DNA of 64,000 nt from Escherichia coli O127:H6 str. E2348/69 (lineage in GTDB: Bacteria; Pseudomonadota; Gammaproteobacteria; Enterobacterales; Enterobacteriaceae). The notes beneath the pieces are model-generated. The model was not told where the DNA came from, did no database searches, and saw only the letters and a program-made list of their open reading frames with translations. Where the stretch lies: assembly GCF_000026545.1 (NCBI RefSeq), contig NC_011601.1; one strand, written 5' to 3'. Below, piece by piece: positions 1-8,485 of this stretch (positions within the stretch are counted from its first letter, which is position 1; the number at the start of each line of letters is the position of its first letter). The position numbers and the translations under genes were made by a program.

Positions 1-631
1 AAGCCACACCAGAAACAACAGACCCCACCATGCCCCCCATCCAGGTTAACAGGCCATGAATGGTTACTTTCTCGGAAAAATCAGCCAGAGGGGCAACCAC
101 ATCAAGACCACCCGGAGCGACAATTTTAATTTTCCTGGTATCAGGATTAAGCTCAAAATAGGTGCTGCCATCGTCACTACGCAACTGTGTGGCACTGGTA
201 TTAATACCGCTAATCTTCCTCGCCTGCGACTGGGGGCCTACAATACAAAACGCATCCGATAAATCATGCATTCTGTCATCGACCGGTTCCTGTATTCCGC
301 CGCTCTGCCACCAGAAATCAATACAACGATCGGCAAAAACGACAAGACACTCATCCCCGGCTTTAATCGGAAACGTTAGCGTACATCCTCCGCCACGTGG
401 GAATACCACTGGAACATCCACCAGCAATGGGTAATTTTTGGTAATGCGGTTGCCGTCATTATCCTTTTCAACCGAACGGATAGCAGGCTGCACAACCGCC
501 GTCACCGCATCAGGATCGAATGACTGAATAATGCCAGGCAAGGCGACTCGGATCTGATTCTTTGTTGTTTCCCGTTCAGATTTGAATGTTTCGGCAAGGT
601 CGCCGCTGCGGGTCTGGTCAGATACTGCCAT
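1..631 (-). CDS. Baseplate spike/assembly protein (gpV / Mu gp45-like), C-terminus runs off window start
   Basis: Minus-strand frame open from ATG at 631-629 (GGAG RBS upstream) to position 1; hand translation MAVSDQTRSGDLAETF...VAPGGLDVVAPLADFSEKVTIHGLL resembles baseplate V-type proteins; not in ORF track because no stop in window. Confidence 0.45.
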   Translation of the reverse strand, partial: MAVSDQTRSGDLAETFKSERETTKNQIRVALPGIIQSFDPDAVTAVVQPAIRSVEKDNDGNRITKNYPLLVDVPVVFPRGGGCTLTFPIKAGDECLVVFADRCIDFWWQSGGIQEPVDDRMHDLSDAFCIVGPQSQARKISGINTSATQLRSDDGSTYFELNPDTRKIKIVAPGGLDVVAPLADFSEKVTIHGLLTWMGGMVGSVVSGVA

Positions 632-650
632 TTGGTAGGCTCCAGAAAGC

Positions 651-679
651 AAAAAACCCGCCGAATGGCGGGTTTTGTT
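651..679 (-). terminator. Rho-independent terminator (symmetric hairpin) closing the two-gene cargo operon
   Basis: GC hairpin cccgccgaatggcggg flanked by A-run on one side and T-run on the other; lies directly after stop of 696..1091. Confidence 0.65.
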
Positions 680-695
680 AATTCACTGAATGAGT

Positions 696-1091
696 TTAAA
701 CAGCTTCATCAGTCTTCATTTTTTCCCACTGAGAAAAAATAGTCTTAACCTCTAAGAGAGATTGCTGTGCCATTGCTTTATCTATTGCACAGCTAGTGAG
801 GTCATAATCTGCTTCATTTCGAGCCAGTCTCTGTTGCTCAAGTTTGTAAGCCATGGATTTTAGGCTTAATGGATCATATGGCTCCAGTTTGTTTTCACTC
901 TTATTTTTAAGATAAGAGATAAGACTGGAATGATGATCCTTCGTATAAGCAGGAAGACTGGTCAGATTCTCTTTTATTTCATGGTAAAGCGCATAATATG
1001 CCCGCGAAATAGTATTACGATAACCAACTTCAGAATCCTCCGCAAAGCAACGCTCCGCTGAAGATAAAAACTCAGAGCTAGTTATAGGCAT
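696..1091 (-). CDS. Hypothetical 131-aa protein with R-x6-H motif (possible HEPN-like fold); distal gene of cargo operon
   Basis: ORF track; start overlaps end of upstream gene (1078..1091); motif RAYYALYH at aa 30-37; region looks AT-rich by eye. Confidence 0.6.
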   Translation of the reverse strand: MPITSSEFLSSAERCFAEDSEVGYRNTISRAYYALYHEIKENLTSLPAYTKDHHSSLISYLKNKSENKLEPYDPLSLKSMAYKLEQQRLARNEADYDLTSCAIDKAMAQQSLLEVKTIFSQWEKMKTDEAV

Positions 1092-1848
1092 ATTTACACC
1101 CTTTCAAGCTATTTCTTTCAACGGAAAAACGTGCAATAAGATTGCAATCATCAAGTAAATCGATTGAACAAATTTCATCTGCAAGTCGCATATTCATTGC
1201 AACCACCTGTTCAGGGGATGCATTAACTACCTCAACCAGATAAGTCCCACCAGATGCACCGTTGATGTCAGCACGATATTCAGTTGGAGGGAATTCAGCC
1301 ATGACTCTATGAACAGCAAGAGCAACTTGCATGTATTGTTCTGAAGAGCATCCTGACTTTTTGTATGCTTCATCCATATCGTGAATTACCTCCTGCAAGA
1401 AGGCTTCTGCGTCATCCCTATGTTCTTCTTGGGATAACATTTTGCAATGACGTCCAAAATATTCTACGCATTTTGATAGTTTCCCTACCAAATACGCAAC
1501 GCCACCAGCCCTATAAGTAAACCACTTGGTTGGATACTTATCAGCTAAAGAATAGATGTAGTAGTCCGATTTTTCGAGTAGAGAAAAACGCTCAAGCAGC
1601 TTACAAAAAATCCGCGCAAAGTTAACATCAGCATGTGGGAGGATAGCTTCAAGCATTTCAATCCCGACACTCACATCACCTTTAGCAATATGAGCCAAAG
1701 CTACAAGCGTGTCAGCAGGCGGAGTACGCTTAGAGCCATACTCCGAGACCACCTGTCGAAAGGTCCAAATATCAAGAGGTTGACCGCTATTGATTATCTT
1801 AACCAACTGGTCAAAACGCTCTTCCGCTTTCAGTTTTGGTCTTGCCAC
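1078..1848 (-). CDS. Hypothetical 256-aa protein, proximal gene of cargo operon
   Basis: ORF track; no recognisable family; coupled to downstream 131-aa gene; flanked by terminator-like hairpins. Confidence 0.6.
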   Translation of the reverse strand: MARPKLKAEERFDQLVKIINSGQPLDIWTFRQVVSEYGSKRTPPADTLVALAHIAKGDVSVGIEMLEAILPHADVNFARIFCKLLERFSLLEKSDYYIYSLADKYPTKWFTYRAGGVAYLVGKLSKCVEYFGRHCKMLSQEEHRDDAEAFLQEVIHDMDEAYKKSGCSSEQYMQVALAVHRVMAEFPPTEYRADINGASGGTYLVEVVNASPEQVVAMNMRLADEICSIDLLDDCNLIARFSVERNSLKGCKYAYN

Positions 1849-1936
1849 AGTACGCTCGCTACTTATCTTTTGGTTGAATTTTATGTTCGCGTATACAGTT
1901 TAGTCAATCCGAAGCTCGTGCTGTTGAGCCGTTTCG

Positions 1937-1963
1937 CACAAAATCATCCTTGCAAAAAGGATG
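1937..1963 (-). terminator. Putative rho-independent terminator after the signal-peptide gene
   Basis: Inverted repeat catcctt/aaggatg followed on minus strand by ATTTTGTG. Confidence 0.4.
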
Positions 1964-1968
1964 GGACT

Positions 1969-2310
1969 TCAACCATCAACCTTTTTACACGGGAAAGAGC
2001 CGATGATTTTCGGTGCATCCATGCTGTTCTGCAGAAGCTGGACGTTCAGGAAACGCGTTTCGGTGCCAGGGCGACGAATGTATTCAAAGCCGTAGTTGTT
2101 ACCGTCTTTGGCAGGCATAAGCCCCATATCAATCTTAATGCCATCAGCACCAAGATTTGTAATTTTCTGAGATGTGACGCGTTCACCGTTAATCATGTCC
2201 ATTTCCCCCAACCTTGCAGTGATGGTGTAAGGTCCACAATAAGCGGTGTAACCGCTTGCAGATGCCCCAAATGACATAAAGGCAACAATTAAAATGGCTA
2301 AGGCTTTCAC
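1969..2310 (-). CDS. Secreted/periplasmic hypothetical protein (signal peptide), GTG start
   Basis: ORF track; N-terminus MKALAILIVAFMSFGASA is a typical Sec signal peptide; start codon is GTG 2 nt after stop of 2313..3374. Confidence 0.55.
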   Translation of the reverse strand: MKALAILIVAFMSFGASASGYTAYCGPYTITARLGEMDMINGERVTSQKITNLGADGIKIDMGLMPAKDGNNYGFEYIRRPGTETRFLNVQLLQNSMDAPKIIGSFPCKKVDG

Positions 2311-2312
2311 AT

Positions 2313-3374
2313 TTACCCCCGGTTAAGCGAGTCCTGAGTGCGGAGATCCGCCGCGCCACGCGCTTCGCACATCATATCCATGTACCACGCCAGGCCCCTT
2401 GTATCGCCAGTGTACATAATCCCGCGCACAATATAAACGCCATCCGTTGCGATGCTGGCAGGCTGCGATGTGGTGCCGCTTAGCGTGATATTTCCATCCG
2501 TGTTCTGGTCGGTGATCTGACCACCAGCCATCGCAATATCGTTGTTCGACAAGGCGGTACGATACACGGAAGCCTGATCCAGCTGAATGAGTCCGTTAAC
2601 CCGGATGTTCGGATTAATAAGCGCGCGGACGTTTACGCCGTTACCGATAGTCTGCTGCGGCATGCCAATAAGCCCGGTAGCGCTGTTGAGCACAATCGCT
2701 TCATGAACATATTCGTTATTCGCCACCATCTGGCGTTGACCGTCCACGAATTGCCATGTTGCGCCACATTGTCCGGCCACGTTATCCATAAGATGCCGTG
2801 TCATGCCGAACAGCACCCGCCCTCGAGGGAATACGGTAGCAGGCATTTCAGGCGTCAGGCCTTCGGTCGCGCCTTTGGCTTCGAAGTCTTTCATCAGCGC
2901 ACGGTTCACATCAGCGACCGTGTAACCGGCAGCCAGCGTCTGTGAGGTTATACTGGTGGCAAAAGCCAGATCAGTATCTGCTGCCTGAATCAGGACGTAG
3001 GTATCAACCGGACTGTCTTTTCCTGTGACCGAGTAGCGAATTTCACCGCTGAAAATCAGTCCGTAGTTGCGGCCATCTCTCTGGCCCACGTCCGCCGCGT
3101 CAACTTCCCGCACGGTCCCTACGTCGCTTGCTGACACCTCTGGCGCGACACCGTCGTAACCGGCAATCAGACGCACTTTCGAAAATTCCTGCCCGGTGAT
3201 TCGGTTCACAGTATCTGCCGAGAGGTTATAAATTTTGATAGTCCCTACCCGGGACGCGCTGCTGATGTTGAACCAGTCGATCGTAAAGGTGACTTTGAAA
3301 TCACTTAGCTCAATTCCCTGACCGTTCCCGTCCACAAGCTGCAGCTCGAAATGTCTCATCCAGTTCTGTGACAT
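2313..3374 (-). CDS. Tail/baseplate protein (putative baseplate hub)
   Basis: ORF track; position between tape-measure-proximal genes and gpV-like gene in a Mu/SfV-like tail cluster. Confidence 0.45.
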   Translation of the reverse strand: MSQNWMRHFELQLVDGNGQGIELSDFKVTFTIDWFNISSASRVGTIKIYNLSADTVNRITGQEFSKVRLIAGYDGVAPEVSASDVGTVREVDAADVGQRDGRNYGLIFSGEIRYSVTGKDSPVDTYVLIQAADTDLAFATSITSQTLAAGYTVADVNRALMKDFEAKGATEGLTPEMPATVFPRGRVLFGMTRHLMDNVAGQCGATWQFVDGQRQMVANNEYVHEAIVLNSATGLIGMPQQTIGNGVNVRALINPNIRVNGLIQLDQASVYRTALSNNDIAMAGGQITDQNTDGNITLSGTTSQPASIATDGVYIVRGIMYTGDTRGLAWYMDMMCEARGAADLRTQDSLNRG

Positions 3375-3376
3375 GC

Positions 3377-3679
3377 TTACTCCGTTGATACCAGTAAATG
3401 ACTGAGGCCGCCCAGATCAGTTTTCGTGGGATAATCCTGTGTGTTGTCATCGCAGACCACCACCAGCTTAAAACCAAGTCCCATACAGGCGTACTGCGCC
3501 AGCAGATCAGCGCCAGTGACGAGAGGAATACCGGAGATTACCGGCTCCCCTCTGTCGTTCTGCAGGTCCATAATCCAGTAAGGATCGCGCCATATGATGC
3601 TAATCCGCCAGGTGACACCACCCAGGACGATGCTGAACTGCTGGTTGTCCGCTGTCAGCGGAATTTCCTGAATTGTCAT
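3377..3679 (-). CDS. Tail protein (hypothetical)
   Basis: ORF track; tightly packed in tail cluster. Confidence 0.4.
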   Translation of the reverse strand: MTIQEIPLTADNQQFSIVLGGVTWRISIIWRDPYWIMDLQNDRGEPVISGIPLVTGADLLAQYACMGLGFKLVVVCDDNTQDYPTKTDLGGLSHLLVSTE

Positions 3680-4266
3680 TAGCCGCCTCCCAGTAATGAC
3701 GCCACGTTACCAGTGATGCTTTTCAGCAGTGAAGTATCTGGAGGCTTTGTGGTTTTGTTGCCGCTGTTCTGTACCGCCGACGTGCTGGCCCCTTCCTTCA
3801 TGTTGGTTTTATCCGCGACGGTAATCTGCTGTGTCCGGGAGATAAGGACCTCCCTCAGGGTGAGGACGGCGGACAGGACGTTTTCGGTTGTCTTGTCCGT
3901 CGTCACTTCCAGCGCCCGGATCAACATGTTGCTGTACAGTCGTTTACCGGTTACCACATCGAAGGGGATACGGCTTTCCTGCAGATCCAGTAGCTCCTGA
4001 TACGTCTGCTGAGGACTCAGGCCGAGCAGGCTGGTAGCCGTCAGATTACTGGCAAAATCCAGCAATGCGCCGCCACCGGCGAAACCAACCTCCATCACCA
4101 CTTCTGACGGTTTTTTATAGGCATGATCAGCGACAGCGGCCCCGACCTCTACCGGATGCTCTGTTATTTCAAGCATATCTGTATGCTTCTCTGAAATAAC
4201 AACACTGGGAACAATCATTCCTATTTTTCTGCTCTGCTGATGAAAAAGTGTAGAGAGAATATCCAC
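3679..4266 (-). CDS. Tail protein (hypothetical; immediately after tape measure)
   Basis: ORF track; start overlaps tape measure stop. Confidence 0.45.
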   Translation of the reverse strand: MDILSTLFHQQSRKIGMIVPSVVISEKHTDMLEITEHPVEVGAAVADHAYKKPSEVVMEVGFAGGGALLDFASNLTATSLLGLSPQQTYQELLDLQESRIPFDVVTGKRLYSNMLIRALEVTTDKTTENVLSAVLTLREVLISRTQQITVADKTNMKEGASTSAVQNSGNKTTKPPDTSLLKSITGNVASLLGGG

Positions 4267-6254
4267 TAACCCACCCTCACCTGATTACTTCGCATGACCT
4301 GAGCATTTGCAGACTGTTGCCGACGTGCAACCTCATTACCGACAGCGTGCGGATCTCCGCCACCGTAAATGTGGTAAGTATTTTGCTGGTTAACCTCTGT
4401 CATTTTGCCACTAATTCCCGTCACGGCAGCCTTATTAATCAGCTCTCGAGAATAGATATTTCTTCCATTTTCATGCTGGATAATGCTGCTCATCAATGCT
4501 GACATGGTTTGCGGATCGCTCATATTCAGGGCAGCCCGGGGATCCACTCCCAGTCGTTGCGATACAGCCCTGATATACGCAGTTGTGTTGTTATTATCAG
4601 ACGCAGGTGCCCAGGTAGAGATAATTTTCTCCACGCTGTTTATTCCACGTCCGGCGTACAACATTAACTGACGAGCAAGAGCCCGTAATCCATCAAAAGC
4701 AGTTTCAAATCTGGCAAATCGCCCGCCCGGGCGTTCAAGAGAAGCCCCTGCCTGACCAGCAAAATTAAGGTTTCCCGGATTGTTATTCCGTTCTCCTCGT
4801 TTCGTAGCCTGTGCATATTGTTCCGGCTCATCATCACCAAACCAGCCGCGTACCGTCCGGCCCACACTGCGGGGATCGAATCCCCAGTGCTCTTTAATCC
4901 AGTCGGCAGTACTGTTAGCGCTGTCTGTAACCATCGGCATCGCTGACGGATTTTCGCTGCCCTGATTAAGTATCTGTTTGCCGATGCTGACGGCATCAGC
5001 CCAGCGGCCATCTTTGATAGCGTTGAGCAGGTCGGCGATCATGTTCAGCATTTTGCTGAATTCGCCCATCTGGTCGATGAAGTTGCTGAAATCCCACTTC
5101 AGGGACCATGATTTGGGGTCAATATTGAGCAGTTTCGCCAGCGCTTTCACCAGTTCATTAACAGACCCTTTCAGGTCACGAACCATCTTCAGCGCGGCAT
5201 CGACCTCCGGCTTCCACTTGCCCCAGTCAATCAGGCTGTCGCCGCCTTCCTTCCAGGTCTGATAGTCCTCCCACAGAAGGGCAATCCCCGCCGCCAGCGC
5301 GGTAATGAGGCCAATCGGCGACATCCAGAACGTACTGTTCAGAATGCGCAGCGCAATCGTCAGCGCGCCAAACAGCGAGATGAGCTCCCGCGTTTGCTTA
5401 TCCAGCGATTGCCACCAGGTGATAAGGCTGGATGTTCCCTCAATTAGCCTGAAGAACAGCCGCCCGATGATGTCTCCGAGCGCCAGAATGCCTTTTATGG
5501 CTTTCGTCAGGGTCTGCTCGATGCGCGGGAAGTTATCGAGGATGTGGCGGCGCAGTGTGTCCAGCGAACCCGCCAGACCACCAGCAAGATTAGAGCCGAT
5601 TTTGTCACGGGCCATGCCTGCCATCGCGCCGAACTCGCGCAGGGAGGTCATGAATTTGTTGGAGCTTCTGGCCGCCTCGTCAGTATTGAAGCCGATAGCT
5701 TTCGCCATTGCGCTGTACTGCCCGGAGAAATCACCCACACCCCGGCGCATCGCCATGAGGGTATTTTCGTCAATACCCAGCATCTGCGCATACTGGTTAG
5801 CCCGGTAATACGGCATGCTGCTGAGCTTCTGTCCGACACCCGTAAAAATAGCGGCCATGTCGCGCATGTTGCCGCTGGCGTCACGGGTCTGTACGCCCAG
5901 GCGATTCAGAAAGCCTTCTGCACCGGGATTGTTACGAATAAACCGGGAGAGGCTTTCCAGAGAAGATCGCGCAGCGTCCACGCTGCCGCCAACCTGCGAA
6001 ACCGCATAGCCAATAGACTGAATCCCCTGAACCGTCGCGCCGGTGCGCTGTGACGCCCAGTAGAGATTATCCAGACCGGAGGCGATCTTGGCCGTGAAGG
6101 CCACCACGGACAGCGCAGCTCCTTCAACAGCCAGCCCCATTTTGATGACATTTGCAGTTGTACCGGCGAGGACAGAACCGAATTTTTTCGCGCCTGCATC
6201 ATCCACACTGAAGCCAAGCGAGACAAGGAAATCTTTAATAGTTTCAGCGTTCAT
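4266..6254 (-). CDS. Tail tape measure protein
   Basis: Largest gene in tail cluster, Gly/Ala-rich with predicted helices; ORF track gives 4266..6275 from TTG, ATG with GGAGAG RBS at 6254 preferred. Confidence 0.65.
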   Translation of the reverse strand: MNAETIKDFLVSLGFSVDDAGAKKFGSVLAGTTANVIKMGLAVEGAALSVVAFTAKIASGLDNLYWASQRTGATVQGIQSIGYAVSQVGGSVDAARSSLESLSRFIRNNPGAEGFLNRLGVQTRDASGNMRDMAAIFTGVGQKLSSMPYYRANQYAQMLGIDENTLMAMRRGVGDFSGQYSAMAKAIGFNTDEAARSSNKFMTSLREFGAMAGMARDKIGSNLAGGLAGSLDTLRRHILDNFPRIEQTLTKAIKGILALGDIIGRLFFRLIEGTSSLITWWQSLDKQTRELISLFGALTIALRILNSTFWMSPIGLITALAAGIALLWEDYQTWKEGGDSLIDWGKWKPEVDAALKMVRDLKGSVNELVKALAKLLNIDPKSWSLKWDFSNFIDQMGEFSKMLNMIADLLNAIKDGRWADAVSIGKQILNQGSENPSAMPMVTDSANSTADWIKEHWGFDPRSVGRTVRGWFGDDEPEQYAQATKRGERNNNPGNLNFAGQAGASLERPGGRFARFETAFDGLRALARQLMLYAGRGINSVEKIISTWAPASDNNNTTAYIRAVSQRLGVDPRAALNMSDPQTMSALMSSIIQHENGRNIYSRELINKAAVTGISGKMTEVNQQNTYHIYGGGDPHAVGNEVARRQQSANAQVMRSNQVRVG

Positions 6255-6431
6255 TATCCTCTCTCCATTTCTCAATGCGCCGCTGGTTATCCGCTTTTAC
6301 CGCCAGATGGTCATTCAAGAGAGCAATGTCATACAAATCGACAGAGCCATCTTTAAGTGCTGTATAAGGAATTAACCCGGCGTCAACCGGATTGAGAAGG
6401 TAGGACAGCCCGTCCGGCAGGCTGTTAAACG

Positions 6432-6884
6432 TCAGCCCTGTTGCAGGCTCTGCGTCGTGCTGGTAAGGGGTGTAGGCAAAAAATTTCCCAGCGAATCGGC
6501 GACCACCCGCGCCACCAGCTGCAGCATGGTTAGCAGGTCGATATCATCGAACATCAGCTGACCGCTGTTGAATACCGGCGTCCATCCGTCCATGTGCTTA
6601 CGTGACACTACGGCCAGGCAAGGATGAATAATCGCGTTGGTATCTTCTTCAGTCAGGGAAGACAGTTCCTCAGCGATACGCGGGAGCATGGCTTCAAACA
6701 CCGGTTTTAACTGCTCGAATTTCACGGTGTCGATTTTGCCGTCGGCAGGCAAACGGGAGCGAATGCTCCCGAAATCTGACATCATTCCTGCCAGCACCGG
6801 CAGAAGTTTGCGGGTCACTTTCAGCTGATCAAAAACGCTGAGTTTTGCCGCGCGATATTTCACGCCTTTGATTTCGAATTCCAT
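6432..6884 (-). CDS. Tail assembly chaperone (putative)
   Basis: Position between tube gene and tape measure. Confidence 0.4.
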   Translation of the reverse strand: MEFEIKGVKYRAAKLSVFDQLKVTRKLLPVLAGMMSDFGSIRSRLPADGKIDTVKFEQLKPVFEAMLPRIAEELSSLTEEDTNAIIHPCLAVVSRKHMDGWTPVFNSGQLMFDDIDLLTMLQLVARVVADSLGNFLPTPLTSTTQSLQQG

Positions 6885-6887
6885 GTA

Positions 6888-7328
6888 TTAAAACTCCCCG
6901 AGAACCTGGTCAATCTTGCCGCAGTCAAACACCCACGGCATCGTATTACCGGCCTTAGCGTTGGCGTTATCCGGCTGTTTCTGGAACGCCACGCTGCGCG
7001 CCGTGATGATGTCTCCGCTCACCTTGTTTCGGATCACAATGACGTTGTTCCCCCAGGTGCCTGAGGACTGACTCTGCGCGTTGTACGCCAGCGACAGCTT
7101 TTTGTTTGTCGGCGAGGTTTTCAGCAGGTTGACGGTTACCGTGCCGCTTTTGTCCGCGTGCAGGCTGTGCATCACTTCGCCGTCAGCACCGATGGTCATG
7201 GTGTTTTTGGGACCGCCCATTGCAACAGTGATCCCCTCCTCTGAACTGGCGGAACCGTAGCCAAGATCAATCTCGCCGGTCGGGCCGGAGAGGGACGCCG
7301 TAACGTCCATAAAAGAATAAGTAGCCAT
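6888..7328 (-). CDS. Tail tube protein (putative)
   Basis: ORF track; small protein directly after sheath-sized gene. Confidence 0.5.
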   Translation of the reverse strand: MATYSFMDVTASLSGPTGEIDLGYGSASSEEGITVAMGGPKNTMTIGADGEVMHSLHADKSGTVTVNLLKTSPTNKKLSLAYNAQSQSSGTWGNNVIVIRNKVSGDIITARSVAFQKQPDNANAKAGNTMPWVFDCGKIDQVLGEF

Positions 7329-7339
7329 TCATGTTCTCC

Positions 7340-8485
7340 TTAGCGAACGACGTTGATCTGCACATCGGCATAATGAACTGCGCCAGCCAGCTTACAGGCC
7401 ACCTGAATTAACGGTGCTTTGCGAGCTTCTCGGTCGGCCTGCGCCTGTTCGGACAGAGGTTGCGCATACACGTAATAACCTTTGGTCAGCGTATCGCCGG
7501 AATTCAGCTGTCCGATAGGGCCACCATTCCACACGCCAGCCGCTACCAGACCGTTCGTGACGGACTGATCCATGGACTGTTCAACGTTGGAAAGCAGACG
7601 GGTCACACCGGCATCAGTCTGCGGAATTTTGGTGGTGCTGGTGTAAAGCAGGTTATAGAGGTTGGTCTGCACATAATTCTGTAACCAGTCCAGGCCGTGG
7701 CGTTCATCAAAGAAATCGCCGTTAGCCATCACTCCCTGCTGGAGGATAGCCGTATCATTCTGGTAGTACACGAACACATTGCAGTTTTTTGCGTCAAGTG
7801 CCGATGCCTGGCTGACTGTCAGTGTTTCATACCCGACACCCGGCTCCTGCTTAAACTTGAGCGTAATCGCGGTATTACTGCCATTGAAATTAACCGTGAA
7901 TGCCCGGCCAAATGCAGATAACGCAGCGTATTTATTACCCGATGAATACTGAATAAAACTGCGTGAATATCCGGCGGTTTTCAGTTTTGATGCCAAATCA
8001 TCTCTGGATGCAGTCTGCAGGCATTTCTCATCGCTTGTCGTAATCGCCAGAATACGGCTTACAGAAGAGGATTCGATCGCCGCAGCCACTTTCAGCCAGT
8101 CTGCATCCGGAATATCTGCATCGTCTGCAATCCCCAGCCCATACCATGAAGTATAATCAAGCATGGCATTCACAGCCTGCTCCAGCGTCTCAGGCGTGGC
8201 CTGTTCGCTGTCTCCCTTCGTTTTCACCCAACGACCAACAAAAACCTCCTGAGGTTTCGGTGATTGAGAGAAAAACACCTGCGCAGCCTTATATTCTGGT
8301 GATTCCACGCCAAAATCTTTTCCAATATCTTCCGCGGCAGAATAACGGCGAATGCGCTCACTTACCGGAATGATTGTGGACGGGCCGAGAATGAGTAATG
8401 CACCAAAATTTCGCCCTGATGCTGCACGCGGCGACATGATCACATCAACATTAACAACGTTTGATACAGGCAAGCCCTGTGCCAT
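7340..8485 (-). CDS. Contractile tail sheath protein (putative)
   Basis: ORF track; size and position typical of sheath in Mu/SfV-like myovirus tail modules. Confidence 0.5.

Follow-up and report, generated by a model that had tools for sequence, protein, structure and literature searches.

A two-gene insert in a prophage tail cluster

We analysed a 64,000 nucleotide (nt) stretch of DNA from Escherichia coli O127:H6 str. E2348/69 (NCBI RefSeq assembly GCF_000026545.1, contig NC_011601.1), referred to below as the window, in which a cluster of prophage tail genes is interrupted by two small overlapping genes at positions 696-1848. The pair lies between a baseplate hub gene and a gene for a 113 amino acid (aa) protein on one side and a gpV-like spike gene on the other. 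The first gene, here called gene A, occupies 1078-1848 on the minus strand, has a GTG start and encodes a protein of 256 aa (WP_000113597.1; CAS10042.1 and UniProt B7UG12 in the accession records). The second, gene B, occupies 696-1091 on the minus strand, has an ATG start and encodes a protein of 131 aa (WP_001123212.1). The list of open reading frames (ORFs) and the RefSeq coding sequences contain the same two genes, with the ATG of gene B placed 14 nt inside gene A. A first-pass annotation, made from the nucleotide sequence, had described an overlapping pair of these sizes interrupting the tail cluster at this point, and both parts of that description were correct.

The sequence immediately around the two genes was read for expression signals. 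A Shine-Dalgarno-like sequence for gene B, GAAAGGGTG (1097-1105, minus strand), is found within gene A, 5 nt ahead of the ATG, and the two genes are predicted to be translationally coupled. A pattern scan located a sigma-70-like promoter at 1878-1907 (minus strand), 30 nt upstream of the GTG of gene A, with a −35 hexamer TTGACT, an 18-nt spacer and a −10 hexamer TAAAAT (10/12 matches). Promoter-like sites are not in excess in the region overall, where the scan found 4 against 5.5 expected. The Salmonella copy of the insert (see below) keeps both promoter hexamers, and in the Yersinia copy the −10 hexamer and the GTG start are recognisable.

The pair had also been proposed to have terminators on both sides. 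On the downstream side, pattern scanning and folding identified an intrinsic terminator at 645-676 (minus strand), with a 10-bp GC-rich stem, an ATTC loop and a T-tract. The hairpin at 676-653 with its T-tract has a folding energy of −16.8 kcal/mol (z = −4.7), and none of 200 shuffles was as good. The upstream candidate did not survive the same comparison: the weak hairpin at 1945-1963 (minus strand), 3′ of the gene for the 113-aa protein, matched a simple pattern scan but folded no better than shuffles (z = −0.5, with 51/200 equally good), and it is not kept in the Salmonella copy.

The insert is AT-rich relative to its flanks, as had been suggested, with 41.2% GC over 696-1848 compared to 53.3% over the tail genes at 2313-8485. 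Because ∼9.5% of equal-sized stretches in the window are equally AT-rich, this contrast is local and not extreme. Judged from these features of the sequence, the segment from ∼677 to ∼1968, with the promoter-like site and the two genes, constitutes a self-contained accessory cassette.

The 131-aa protein is related to the HEPN-T clade

Gene B matches the PHROG family phrog_5176. The Pfam and NCBIfam libraries returned no significant family for it, and a comparison with the PADLOC models gave HEPN_IX alone, a marginal match (E = 0.009, 14 bits). Matches of its relatives were more informative. Among 14 divergent family members, the Pfam HEPN family (PF05168) was matched by five at E ≤ 1e-3 (best 1.9e-5) and by eight at E ≤ 0.1. 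A precomputed PF05168 match was present for 9/98 among the relatives listed, and several relatives are named HEPN or UPF0332 by NCBI or JGI. When the family profile was compared with the PDB, it matched 2hsb (AF0298, HEPN/UPF0332; E = 0.023) and 9xbd (E = 0.12), and also 9xbc; both 9xbd and 9xbc are titled 'HEPN domain-containing protein'. The AlphaFold2 model of the protein, with a predicted local distance difference test (pLDDT) score of 75, has five helices (5-18, 21-44, 53-65, 74-94 and 105-127), corresponding to four core helices and an insert helix.

To identify conserved positions, invariance was judged over the 14 divergent members. Ten residues are invariant down to ∼25-30% identity: E21, R25, R30, Y32, Y33, H37, H54, R91, D95 and Y96. 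The segment RAYYALYH (aa 30-37; 981-1004, minus strand), which the first-pass annotation had singled out as an R-x6-H motif of the kind found in HEPN RNases, is present and lies in helix 2, inside the model helix 21-44. As a catalytic Rx4-6H, however, it was rejected. Of shuffled versions of this protein, 28% contain an R-x4-6-H match, so that the motif alone has no evidential weight, and by position the segment is the helix-2 SRAYYAxxH signature of HEPN-T/UPF0332 proteins, aligning to STAYYAMFH in 2hsb and to SRAYYAMFY in 9xbd.

In HEPN proteins, helix 3 ends with the Rx4-6H motif (Anantharaman et al. 2013, PMC3710099). At this canonical position gene B encodes R-N-E-A-D-Y (aa 91-96; 804-821, minus strand), with Asp instead of His; R91-NEA-D95-Y96 stands at the end of the helix 74-94 and aligns to REESDY in 2hsb and RNRSDY in 9xbd. 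Since a HEPN-T variant in which 'D replaces conserved H' is documented in Table 1 of PMC3710099, Asp at the canonical site does not exclude membership of HEPN-T. In AF0298-like proteins an alternative conserved His is provided by an insert between helices 2 and 3 (PMC3710099). The 'alternative' histidine of the helix-2/helix-3 insert is represented here by His53-His54 (930-935, minus strand). H54 is at the start of the insert helix, is invariant in the 14 divergent members and aligns to the His of 9xbd, while H53 aligns to the His of 2hsb.

On the basis of the PADLOC match, the PDB profile matches and the PF05168 matches of relatives, we are confident that gene B encodes a HEPN-T homolog (PF05168/UPF0332), in agreement with the HEPN-family membership first suggested for it. 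Within that clade it is assigned, by its aligned residues, to the AF0298-like variant.

The 256-aa partner combines a TPR-like domain with a conserved C-terminal domain

The AlphaFold2 model of the gene A protein (pLDDT 86) shows two parts. A TPR-like helical-repeat domain of eight helices spans aa 7-137 (1438-1830, minus strand), and a conserved C-terminal core spans aa ∼158-245 (1114-1377, minus strand), consisting of a helix followed by a beta-beta-alpha-beta arrangement; we propose the latter as the HEPN-binding module. Gene A matches phrog_17809, a family of function unknown, and gave no Pfam, NCBIfam or PADLOC family match. An exhaustive HMMER search of 1.84 billion proteins found 62 representatives of the gene A family, almost all of which are 250-270 aa in length. 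Full-length structural relatives in AFDB50 are present in many Gammaproteobacteria, where they are named 'tetratricopeptide repeat protein' or uncharacterised.

Alignment of divergent members showed that the C-terminal ∼100 aa (from ∼aa 158) are the sole part conserved family-wide, and stand-alone versions of 101-113 aa consist of this domain alone. The N-terminal half changes faster, with a non-synonymous substitution rate (dN) of 0.078 compared to 0.046 in the C-terminal half. Only Asn219 is near-invariant in the C-terminal domain, which is thus without a catalytic signature, and the domain looks like a binding domain rather than an enzyme. Gene A's C-terminal domain and the HEPN protein together form the conserved core of the module.

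Searches for structural relatives of gene A in the PDB gave candidates that were all discarded. For the whole family there was only a spurious repeat match, to a kinesin-light-chain TPR, and for the C-terminal domain (profile of 39 diverse sequences) only spurious matches to designed helical-repeat proteins. No credible PDB match was obtained for the C-terminal domain, the low E-values being those of summed repeat matches. We also considered whether gene A could be an MNT protein. This was rejected, as PF01909 was unmatched by gene A or by 14 family members and the GSX10DXD motif is absent.

The pair is inherited together and is mobile

Orthologous pairs of 256 + 131 aa, with the same 14-nt overlap and at the same junction, are found in prophages of Salmonella, Yersinia and Rosenbergiella; among these junction orthologs the large protein diverges down to 43% identity. 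Relative to the Salmonella ortholog, the ratio of non-synonymous to synonymous substitution rates (dN/dS) is 0.08 for gene A and 0.05 for gene B, indicating strong purifying selection on both genes.

A profile scan of IMG/VR yielded 183 viral contigs, of which 80 loci were kept for context counts. An upstream partner of ∼250-270 aa matching the gene A profile is present in 75/80 of these loci. The partner matches are near full-length in nearly all called loci, and in most of these the partner gene and the HEPN gene share 1-20 nt or adjoin without a gap. No partner was called in the other 5/80 loci, for which the probable cause is an over-extended start of the HEPN ORF.

The position of the pair varies. 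It was found at the hub/spike junction in 44/80 loci and elsewhere in 36/80. In siphovirus tail clusters it lies near the tape-measure gene, next to tail-chaperone or major-tail genes and often to anti-repressor genes. Other copies stand between lysis and terminase genes, behind GemA/Mor in a Mu-like phage, or at the end of a lambdoid prophage, where the pair adjoins a fragment of an isocitrate-dehydrogenase gene. In one IMG/VR contig (2599185261_000001) there are two divergent paralogous pairs (locus positions 1171-2368 and 5222-6405), 2.9 kb apart, separated by an anti-repressor gene and lying upstream of a tape-measure gene.

Copies also occur outside phage genomes. The 10-kb MOBQ mobilisable plasmid p5AsACE of Acinetobacter schindleri (NZ_CP015620.1) encodes, at locus positions 4228-5384, a 258-aa 'tetratricopeptide repeat protein' and a 125-aa HEPN-T homolog, adjoining chromate-resistance genes. 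A minimal pair was found in a chromosome (JGI metagenome contig, locus positions 4001-4706), where a 110-aa protein that has the C-terminal domain only is encoded with a 130-aa HEPN-T protein. Genes for flavorubredoxin and its reductase lie on one side of this minimal pair and, on the other, MFS-transporter and glycosyl-hydrolase genes; no phage gene occurs within 4 kb.

More remote members retain the same organisation of two small, co-directional, adjacent or overlapping genes that are co-inherited. At the same junction in E. coli LR-46 (locus positions 696-1855) there is a remotely related pair of 243 + 142 aa. The small LR-46 protein is remotely homologous to HEPN-T (hhalign probability 98.3%); the large one has only the C-terminal domain in common with gene A, its N-terminal part being different. 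Among GenBank phage records, only that of Klebsiella phage ST405-OXA48phi1.3 (MK416008.1) contains a gene A homolog, with 30% identity. The HEPN ORF of this phage (locus positions ∼4750-5150) is intact in one frame, and its annotation as two small hypothetical ORFs is probably a mis-annotation.

The hub/spike junction is a cargo hotspot

The cassette is carried by a prophage beside the tRNA-Arg gene (argW) of enteropathogenic E. coli E2348/69, with the integrase IntS; the window matches the chromosome of this strain at 100% identity. The prophage has a lambdoid early region and, from its Pfam tail families, a SEN34/E217-like contractile tail. It had initially been labelled SfV-like, which the tail contradicts; IntS and the argW site do agree with the SfV-type site.

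The conserved upstream frame of the junction is the baseplate hub gene at 2313-3374 (minus strand), annotated 'baseplate hub' in SEN34 and YP3, whose orthologs in related loci carry PF22759 (E217_GP41). The conserved downstream frame is the gene annotated by RefSeq as a gpV-like membrane-puncturing spike, the 5′ part of which occupies 1-631 (minus strand); from its start at 631 the gene extends beyond the window, and its orthologs carry PF18352. The flanking tail genes are present in 319/5,426 complete E. coli genomes, of which only 9 have the cassette. It is thus absent from 310/319 genomes that bear the tail genes, and also from SEN34, YP3 and vB_EcoM-689R2, which answers the question, raised when the pair was first noticed, of whether related phages lack it.

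Unrelated cargo occupies the same junction in phages and prophages with 94-98% identity in the flanks, as expected for the moron-type insert that had been postulated. In phages this cargo is a 170-aa gene (vB_EcoM-689R2), a 138-aa gene (SEN34) or a 266-aa gene (YP3). In E. coli prophages it comprises a YafO-family toxin pair, DUF2335, an HMG-box protein, DUF4282, a STY1065/STY2022-family protein and several genes of unknown function; examples of other cargo came from 689R2, SEN34, YP3, STEC1587, M-17, LR-46 and OkiPb01690. None of nine junction cargo proteins tested matched a PADLOC system. We regard it as almost certain, from these comparisons and the distribution of the pair, that genes A and B form a mobile accessory cassette of the moron type, and the hub/spike junction of SEN34-like prophages is delineated by the same alignments as a cargo hotspot with interchangeable genes. 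No description of this hotspot was found in the searched literature.

Homology of the window to these relatives breaks at ∼676 on one side and, on the other, at ∼1978 (SEN34, YP3) or ∼2344 (689R2). The terminator stem is kept in 7/8 aligned cargo variants, the YP3 variant having a different GC hairpin, while the 3-4 nt loop varies (ATTC, ACCC, TTC, AAGT and GGAT). Therefore the downstream terminator, although genuine, is a shared border of the hotspot and not specific to this cassette; the cassette proper is the promoter and the two genes, with the terminator belonging to the frame. The point at which homology stops is exactly the 5′ side of the stem, which suggests that cassettes may be exchanged at or adjacent to the terminator hairpin.

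The gene for the 113-aa protein (1969-2310, minus strand; ORF list) forms the upstream edge of the hotspot and lies outside the pair. Its product has an N-terminal signal peptide (MKALAILIVAFMSFGASASG...) and matches phrog_3443, a family of unknown function. Its identity to the vB_EcoM-689R2 allele is only 73.6%, against 94-98% in the flanks; the gene is absent in OkiPb01690, and in Salmonella a 153-aa gene takes its place. It looks like a second, semi-variable accessory gene at the same hotspot, with a secreted or periplasmic product.

Three further observations concern the host prophage. In a comparison of a Salmonella prophage (CP053294.1) with positions 1-4300 of the window, the hub, plug and Dit genes are ∼97.6% identical and the cassette and spike only ∼87%; this mosaic identity points to recent recombination within the tail module across genera. 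Just past the left end of the window (locus positions 43439-45023), the tail-fibre gene and the helix-turn-helix gene following it are annotated as truncated pseudogenes, and the prophage may thus be defective for virion production, though the cassette is intact. The same prophage encodes tRNA-Thr(UGU) and tRNA-Asn(GUU) at 19987-20142 (minus strand), with the Q antiterminator/HNH genes on one side and the lysis genes on the other. The action of anticodon nucleases can be offset by tRNA genes of phages; a link between these tRNA genes and the HEPN cassette is speculation.

Comparison with known HEPN systems

We compared the pair with described systems that have HEPN proteins or a similar gene arrangement. 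Like HEPN-T proteins (PF05168/UPF0332; AF0298, 2hsb; PMC3710099), gene B encodes a protein in the range of ∼125-135 aa with the helix-2 SRAYYAxxH signature, R-x3-D-Y at the end of helix 3, in which Asp stands for the canonical His, and the alternative His in the insert between helices 2 and 3. It differs in belonging to a distinct subfamily (phrog_5176), mostly enterobacterial and phage-borne, with the query itself below the Pfam threshold, and in having a partner that is not an MNT.

The HEPN/MNT modules, class I HepT/MntA (DUF86 + PF01909, type VII) and class II (PF05168 + PF01909), are likewise two-gene modules in which the small HEPN protein is the predicted toxin. In class II the PF05168 HEPN protein has no RX4HXY (Yao et al. 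2020, PMC7641770), and the same is true of gene B, which in this respect is unlike the class I toxins. In contrast to the MNT partners of both classes, gene A has no nucleotidyltransferase fold, GSX10DXD or PF01909 and instead has the TPR-like and alpha/beta domains. Neutralisation by AMPylation is not expected, because gene A has no MNT features.

AbiV is an abortive-infection HEPN RNase of Lactococcus with an RNA antitoxin (bioRxiv 10.1101/2024.05.05.592566). It has an alternative His at the same position as HEPN-T, and a relationship between the two has been suggested (PMC3710099). It resembles gene B as a HEPN protein with a role in phage defence, a role that is proposed in the case of gene B. 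The AbiV antitoxin is an RNA, whereas gene A encodes a protein of 256 aa; membership of AbiV was discarded, PADLOC having given no match at E ≤ 1 other than HEPN_IX.

Some HEPN families occur in operons with repeat proteins, LA2681 with TPR and AbiU2 with Sel1 (PMC3710099, Table 1), and in both of these a HEPN effector is encoded beside a helical-repeat protein, as it would be here. However, they keep the canonical Rx4-6H and belong to different Pfam families, and they are themselves computational predictions. HepS (Gifsy-1) and Tha (Staphylococcus aureus) are constitutive prophage HEPN nucleases that are inactive until triggered by a phage structural (tail) protein (PMC13043305). HepS differs from gene B in being a solo protein without a partner and in having a canonical R100-x4-H105, and no sequence relationship of gene B to HepS or Tha was detected. 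Membership of LA2681, AbiU2 and HepS was rejected, as neither gene B nor its family gave a profile match.

The organisation of the locus is like that of the P2/P4 hotspots (PMC9122126), in which a fixed junction of conserved genes has interchangeable cargo of deviant base composition; here the cargo comes with a promoter-like site of its own, and the junction is closed off by a terminator. The setting differs, in being the hub/spike junction of a SEN34/E217-like myovirus tail. The genes are small, adjacent or overlapping, co-directional and co-inherited, as in type II toxin-antitoxin modules, but gene A has no DNA-binding domain for autoregulation. By these comparisons the pair is not assignable to HEPN/MNT, AbiV, HepS, Tha or any PADLOC v2 system.

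Proposed function and alternative explanations

HEPN toxins act in both toxin-antitoxin and abortive-infection systems (PMC3710099). Genes A and B probably encode a toxin and its neutraliser, and we infer the following scheme. Gene B would be an RNase toxin with a non-canonical active site formed by Arg91/Asp95 and His54, and would probably be dimeric, as are other HEPN enzymes. The C-terminal ∼100-aa domain of gene A would bind and silence the HEPN protein. Its TPR-like N-terminal domain would sense a trigger, which could be either a protein of an infecting phage or the loss of, or failure to replenish, a labile partner. The freed RNase would then arrest translation and so bring about abortive infection, by which the population of lysogens would be protected, with stabilisation of the element as a side effect. 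As an explanation of the whole, a cassette of HEPN toxin and sensor-neutraliser acting by abortive infection is the best that we can offer, and we hold it with evenly balanced confidence. The narrower claim that anti-phage abortive infection is the function under selection is plausible, though we would put it at slightly short of an even chance.

Several observations weigh against this scheme. Gene B by itself is below significance for the Pfam HEPN family. The Foldseek matches of its model to HEPN structures in the PDB (2q00, 2hsb, 1wty and 7bxo) are weak (E = 0.15-2; template modelling scores 0.33-0.49) and interleaved with other helical bundles such as FliS. The canonical catalytic His of Rx4-6H is missing, the only R-x4-6-H of the protein being R30...H37, and that Asp-variant HEPN-T proteins are active RNases was predicted in 2013, with no demonstration of it found in the literature. 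In the Pfam comparison gene A has no recognisable DNA-binding (HTH, RHH, AbrB) or antitoxin domain; its best antitoxin-type match is MazE-like and non-significant (E = 0.47). At the minimal locus, the one chromosomal locus seen, no recognisable defence genes are present among the called neighbours of the pair. A check against PADLOC-DB v2.0 (2023), which had been recommended along with the original proposal of a defence module, matched no catalogued system beyond the marginal HEPN_IX, and there was no NCBIfam match. Finally, no literature was found for the accessions, this pairing or this hotspot in a search that left out most subscription journals, and the accessions were not found in the searched portion of the DefensePredictor supplements.

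If the pair were a plain addiction module, it would stabilise its carrier prophage, plasmid or island by post-segregational killing and would have no role in phage defence. The overlapping two-gene layout with the putative toxin downstream is what such a module would have, and the copy on a small mobilisable plasmid, the minimal two-gene version in a chromosome and the YafO-family toxin pair found as other cargo at the same junction all point in this direction. The variable, faster-evolving TPR-like N-terminal extension is hard to explain in this way, and the strong bias to temperate-phage moron positions, including the 183 IMG/VR contigs, resembles known prophage defence cargo. We consider addiction alone to be unlikely, and note that addiction and defence roles are not mutually exclusive. 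A different explanation, to which we give rather less weight, is that the HEPN-T protein is not a nuclease and that the pair has a non-toxic accessory function, for example as an adaptor that binds nucleotides or RNA and has a TPR scaffold. With a similarly low probability, such a pair might modulate host physiology, lysogeny or virulence, or counter a host defence. Accessory genes are numerous in the prophages of E2348/69, a pathogen, which would fit a role of this kind, as would the failure of any defence-system model to match. The loss of the canonical His is also in its favour, and some HEPN domains are known to be non-catalytic binding modules (PMC3710099). Against it, the ten invariant HEPN residues are mostly polar or charged and persist to ∼25-30% identity, several of them at the AF0298-like active-site positions of PMC3710099, and the strict linkage and apparent translational coupling are typical of toxin/neutraliser pairs.

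The location inside a tail operon, on the same strand and at the same position in prophages of several genera, could suggest instead that the proteins are conserved components of the tail or baseplate of this phage lineage, with a role in its assembly or structure. This is extremely improbable. The pair is missing from the 310 E. coli genomes described above, which have the same tail genes, and elsewhere it occupies unrelated sites: in siphoviruses and Mu-like phages, and also on a plasmid and a chromosome. It differs in base composition and has a promoter-like site of its own. Both PHROG families are of unknown function, and the matches to tail families are non-significant (E = 0.13-0.19), so the early impression that neither protein resembles a virion component has stood, the more so as the pair also occurs outside tail modules. 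Because the pair is mobile, strictly linked and under purifying selection, we take a structural role in the tail to be excluded and an autonomous accessory module to be established.

Beyond the toxin/neutraliser scheme itself, we tentatively suggest that the pair represents an undescribed class of HEPN immune or toxin system. In this class a non-canonical HEPN-T RNase would be held in check by a new alpha/beta domain of ∼100 aa, which in phage-borne versions is fused to a TPR-like receptor for a protein of a competing phage. Gene A would then be both sensor and antitoxin, and the hub/spike junction would be a defence hotspot like those of P2/P4.

Significance

While the HEPN-T family itself is known, the type of partner in this HEPN two-gene module and the newly delineated prophage hotspot appear, on the comparisons made here, to be new. 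If the pair proved to be only an addiction module, or inactive, it would be one more prophage moron. If the proposed scheme is true, HEPN toxin systems would gain a new type of partner: a neutralising protein, as distinct from an RNA, and one outside the MNT proteins. The pair would also be a genetically tractable test case in E. coli for the RNase activity of Asp-variant HEPN-T proteins, since E2348/69 is a standard laboratory pathogen in which gene deletion and phage challenge are readily done. The hotspot, for its part, belongs to a prophage type that ∼6% of complete E. coli genomes contain, and may be mined for further accessory and defence genes.

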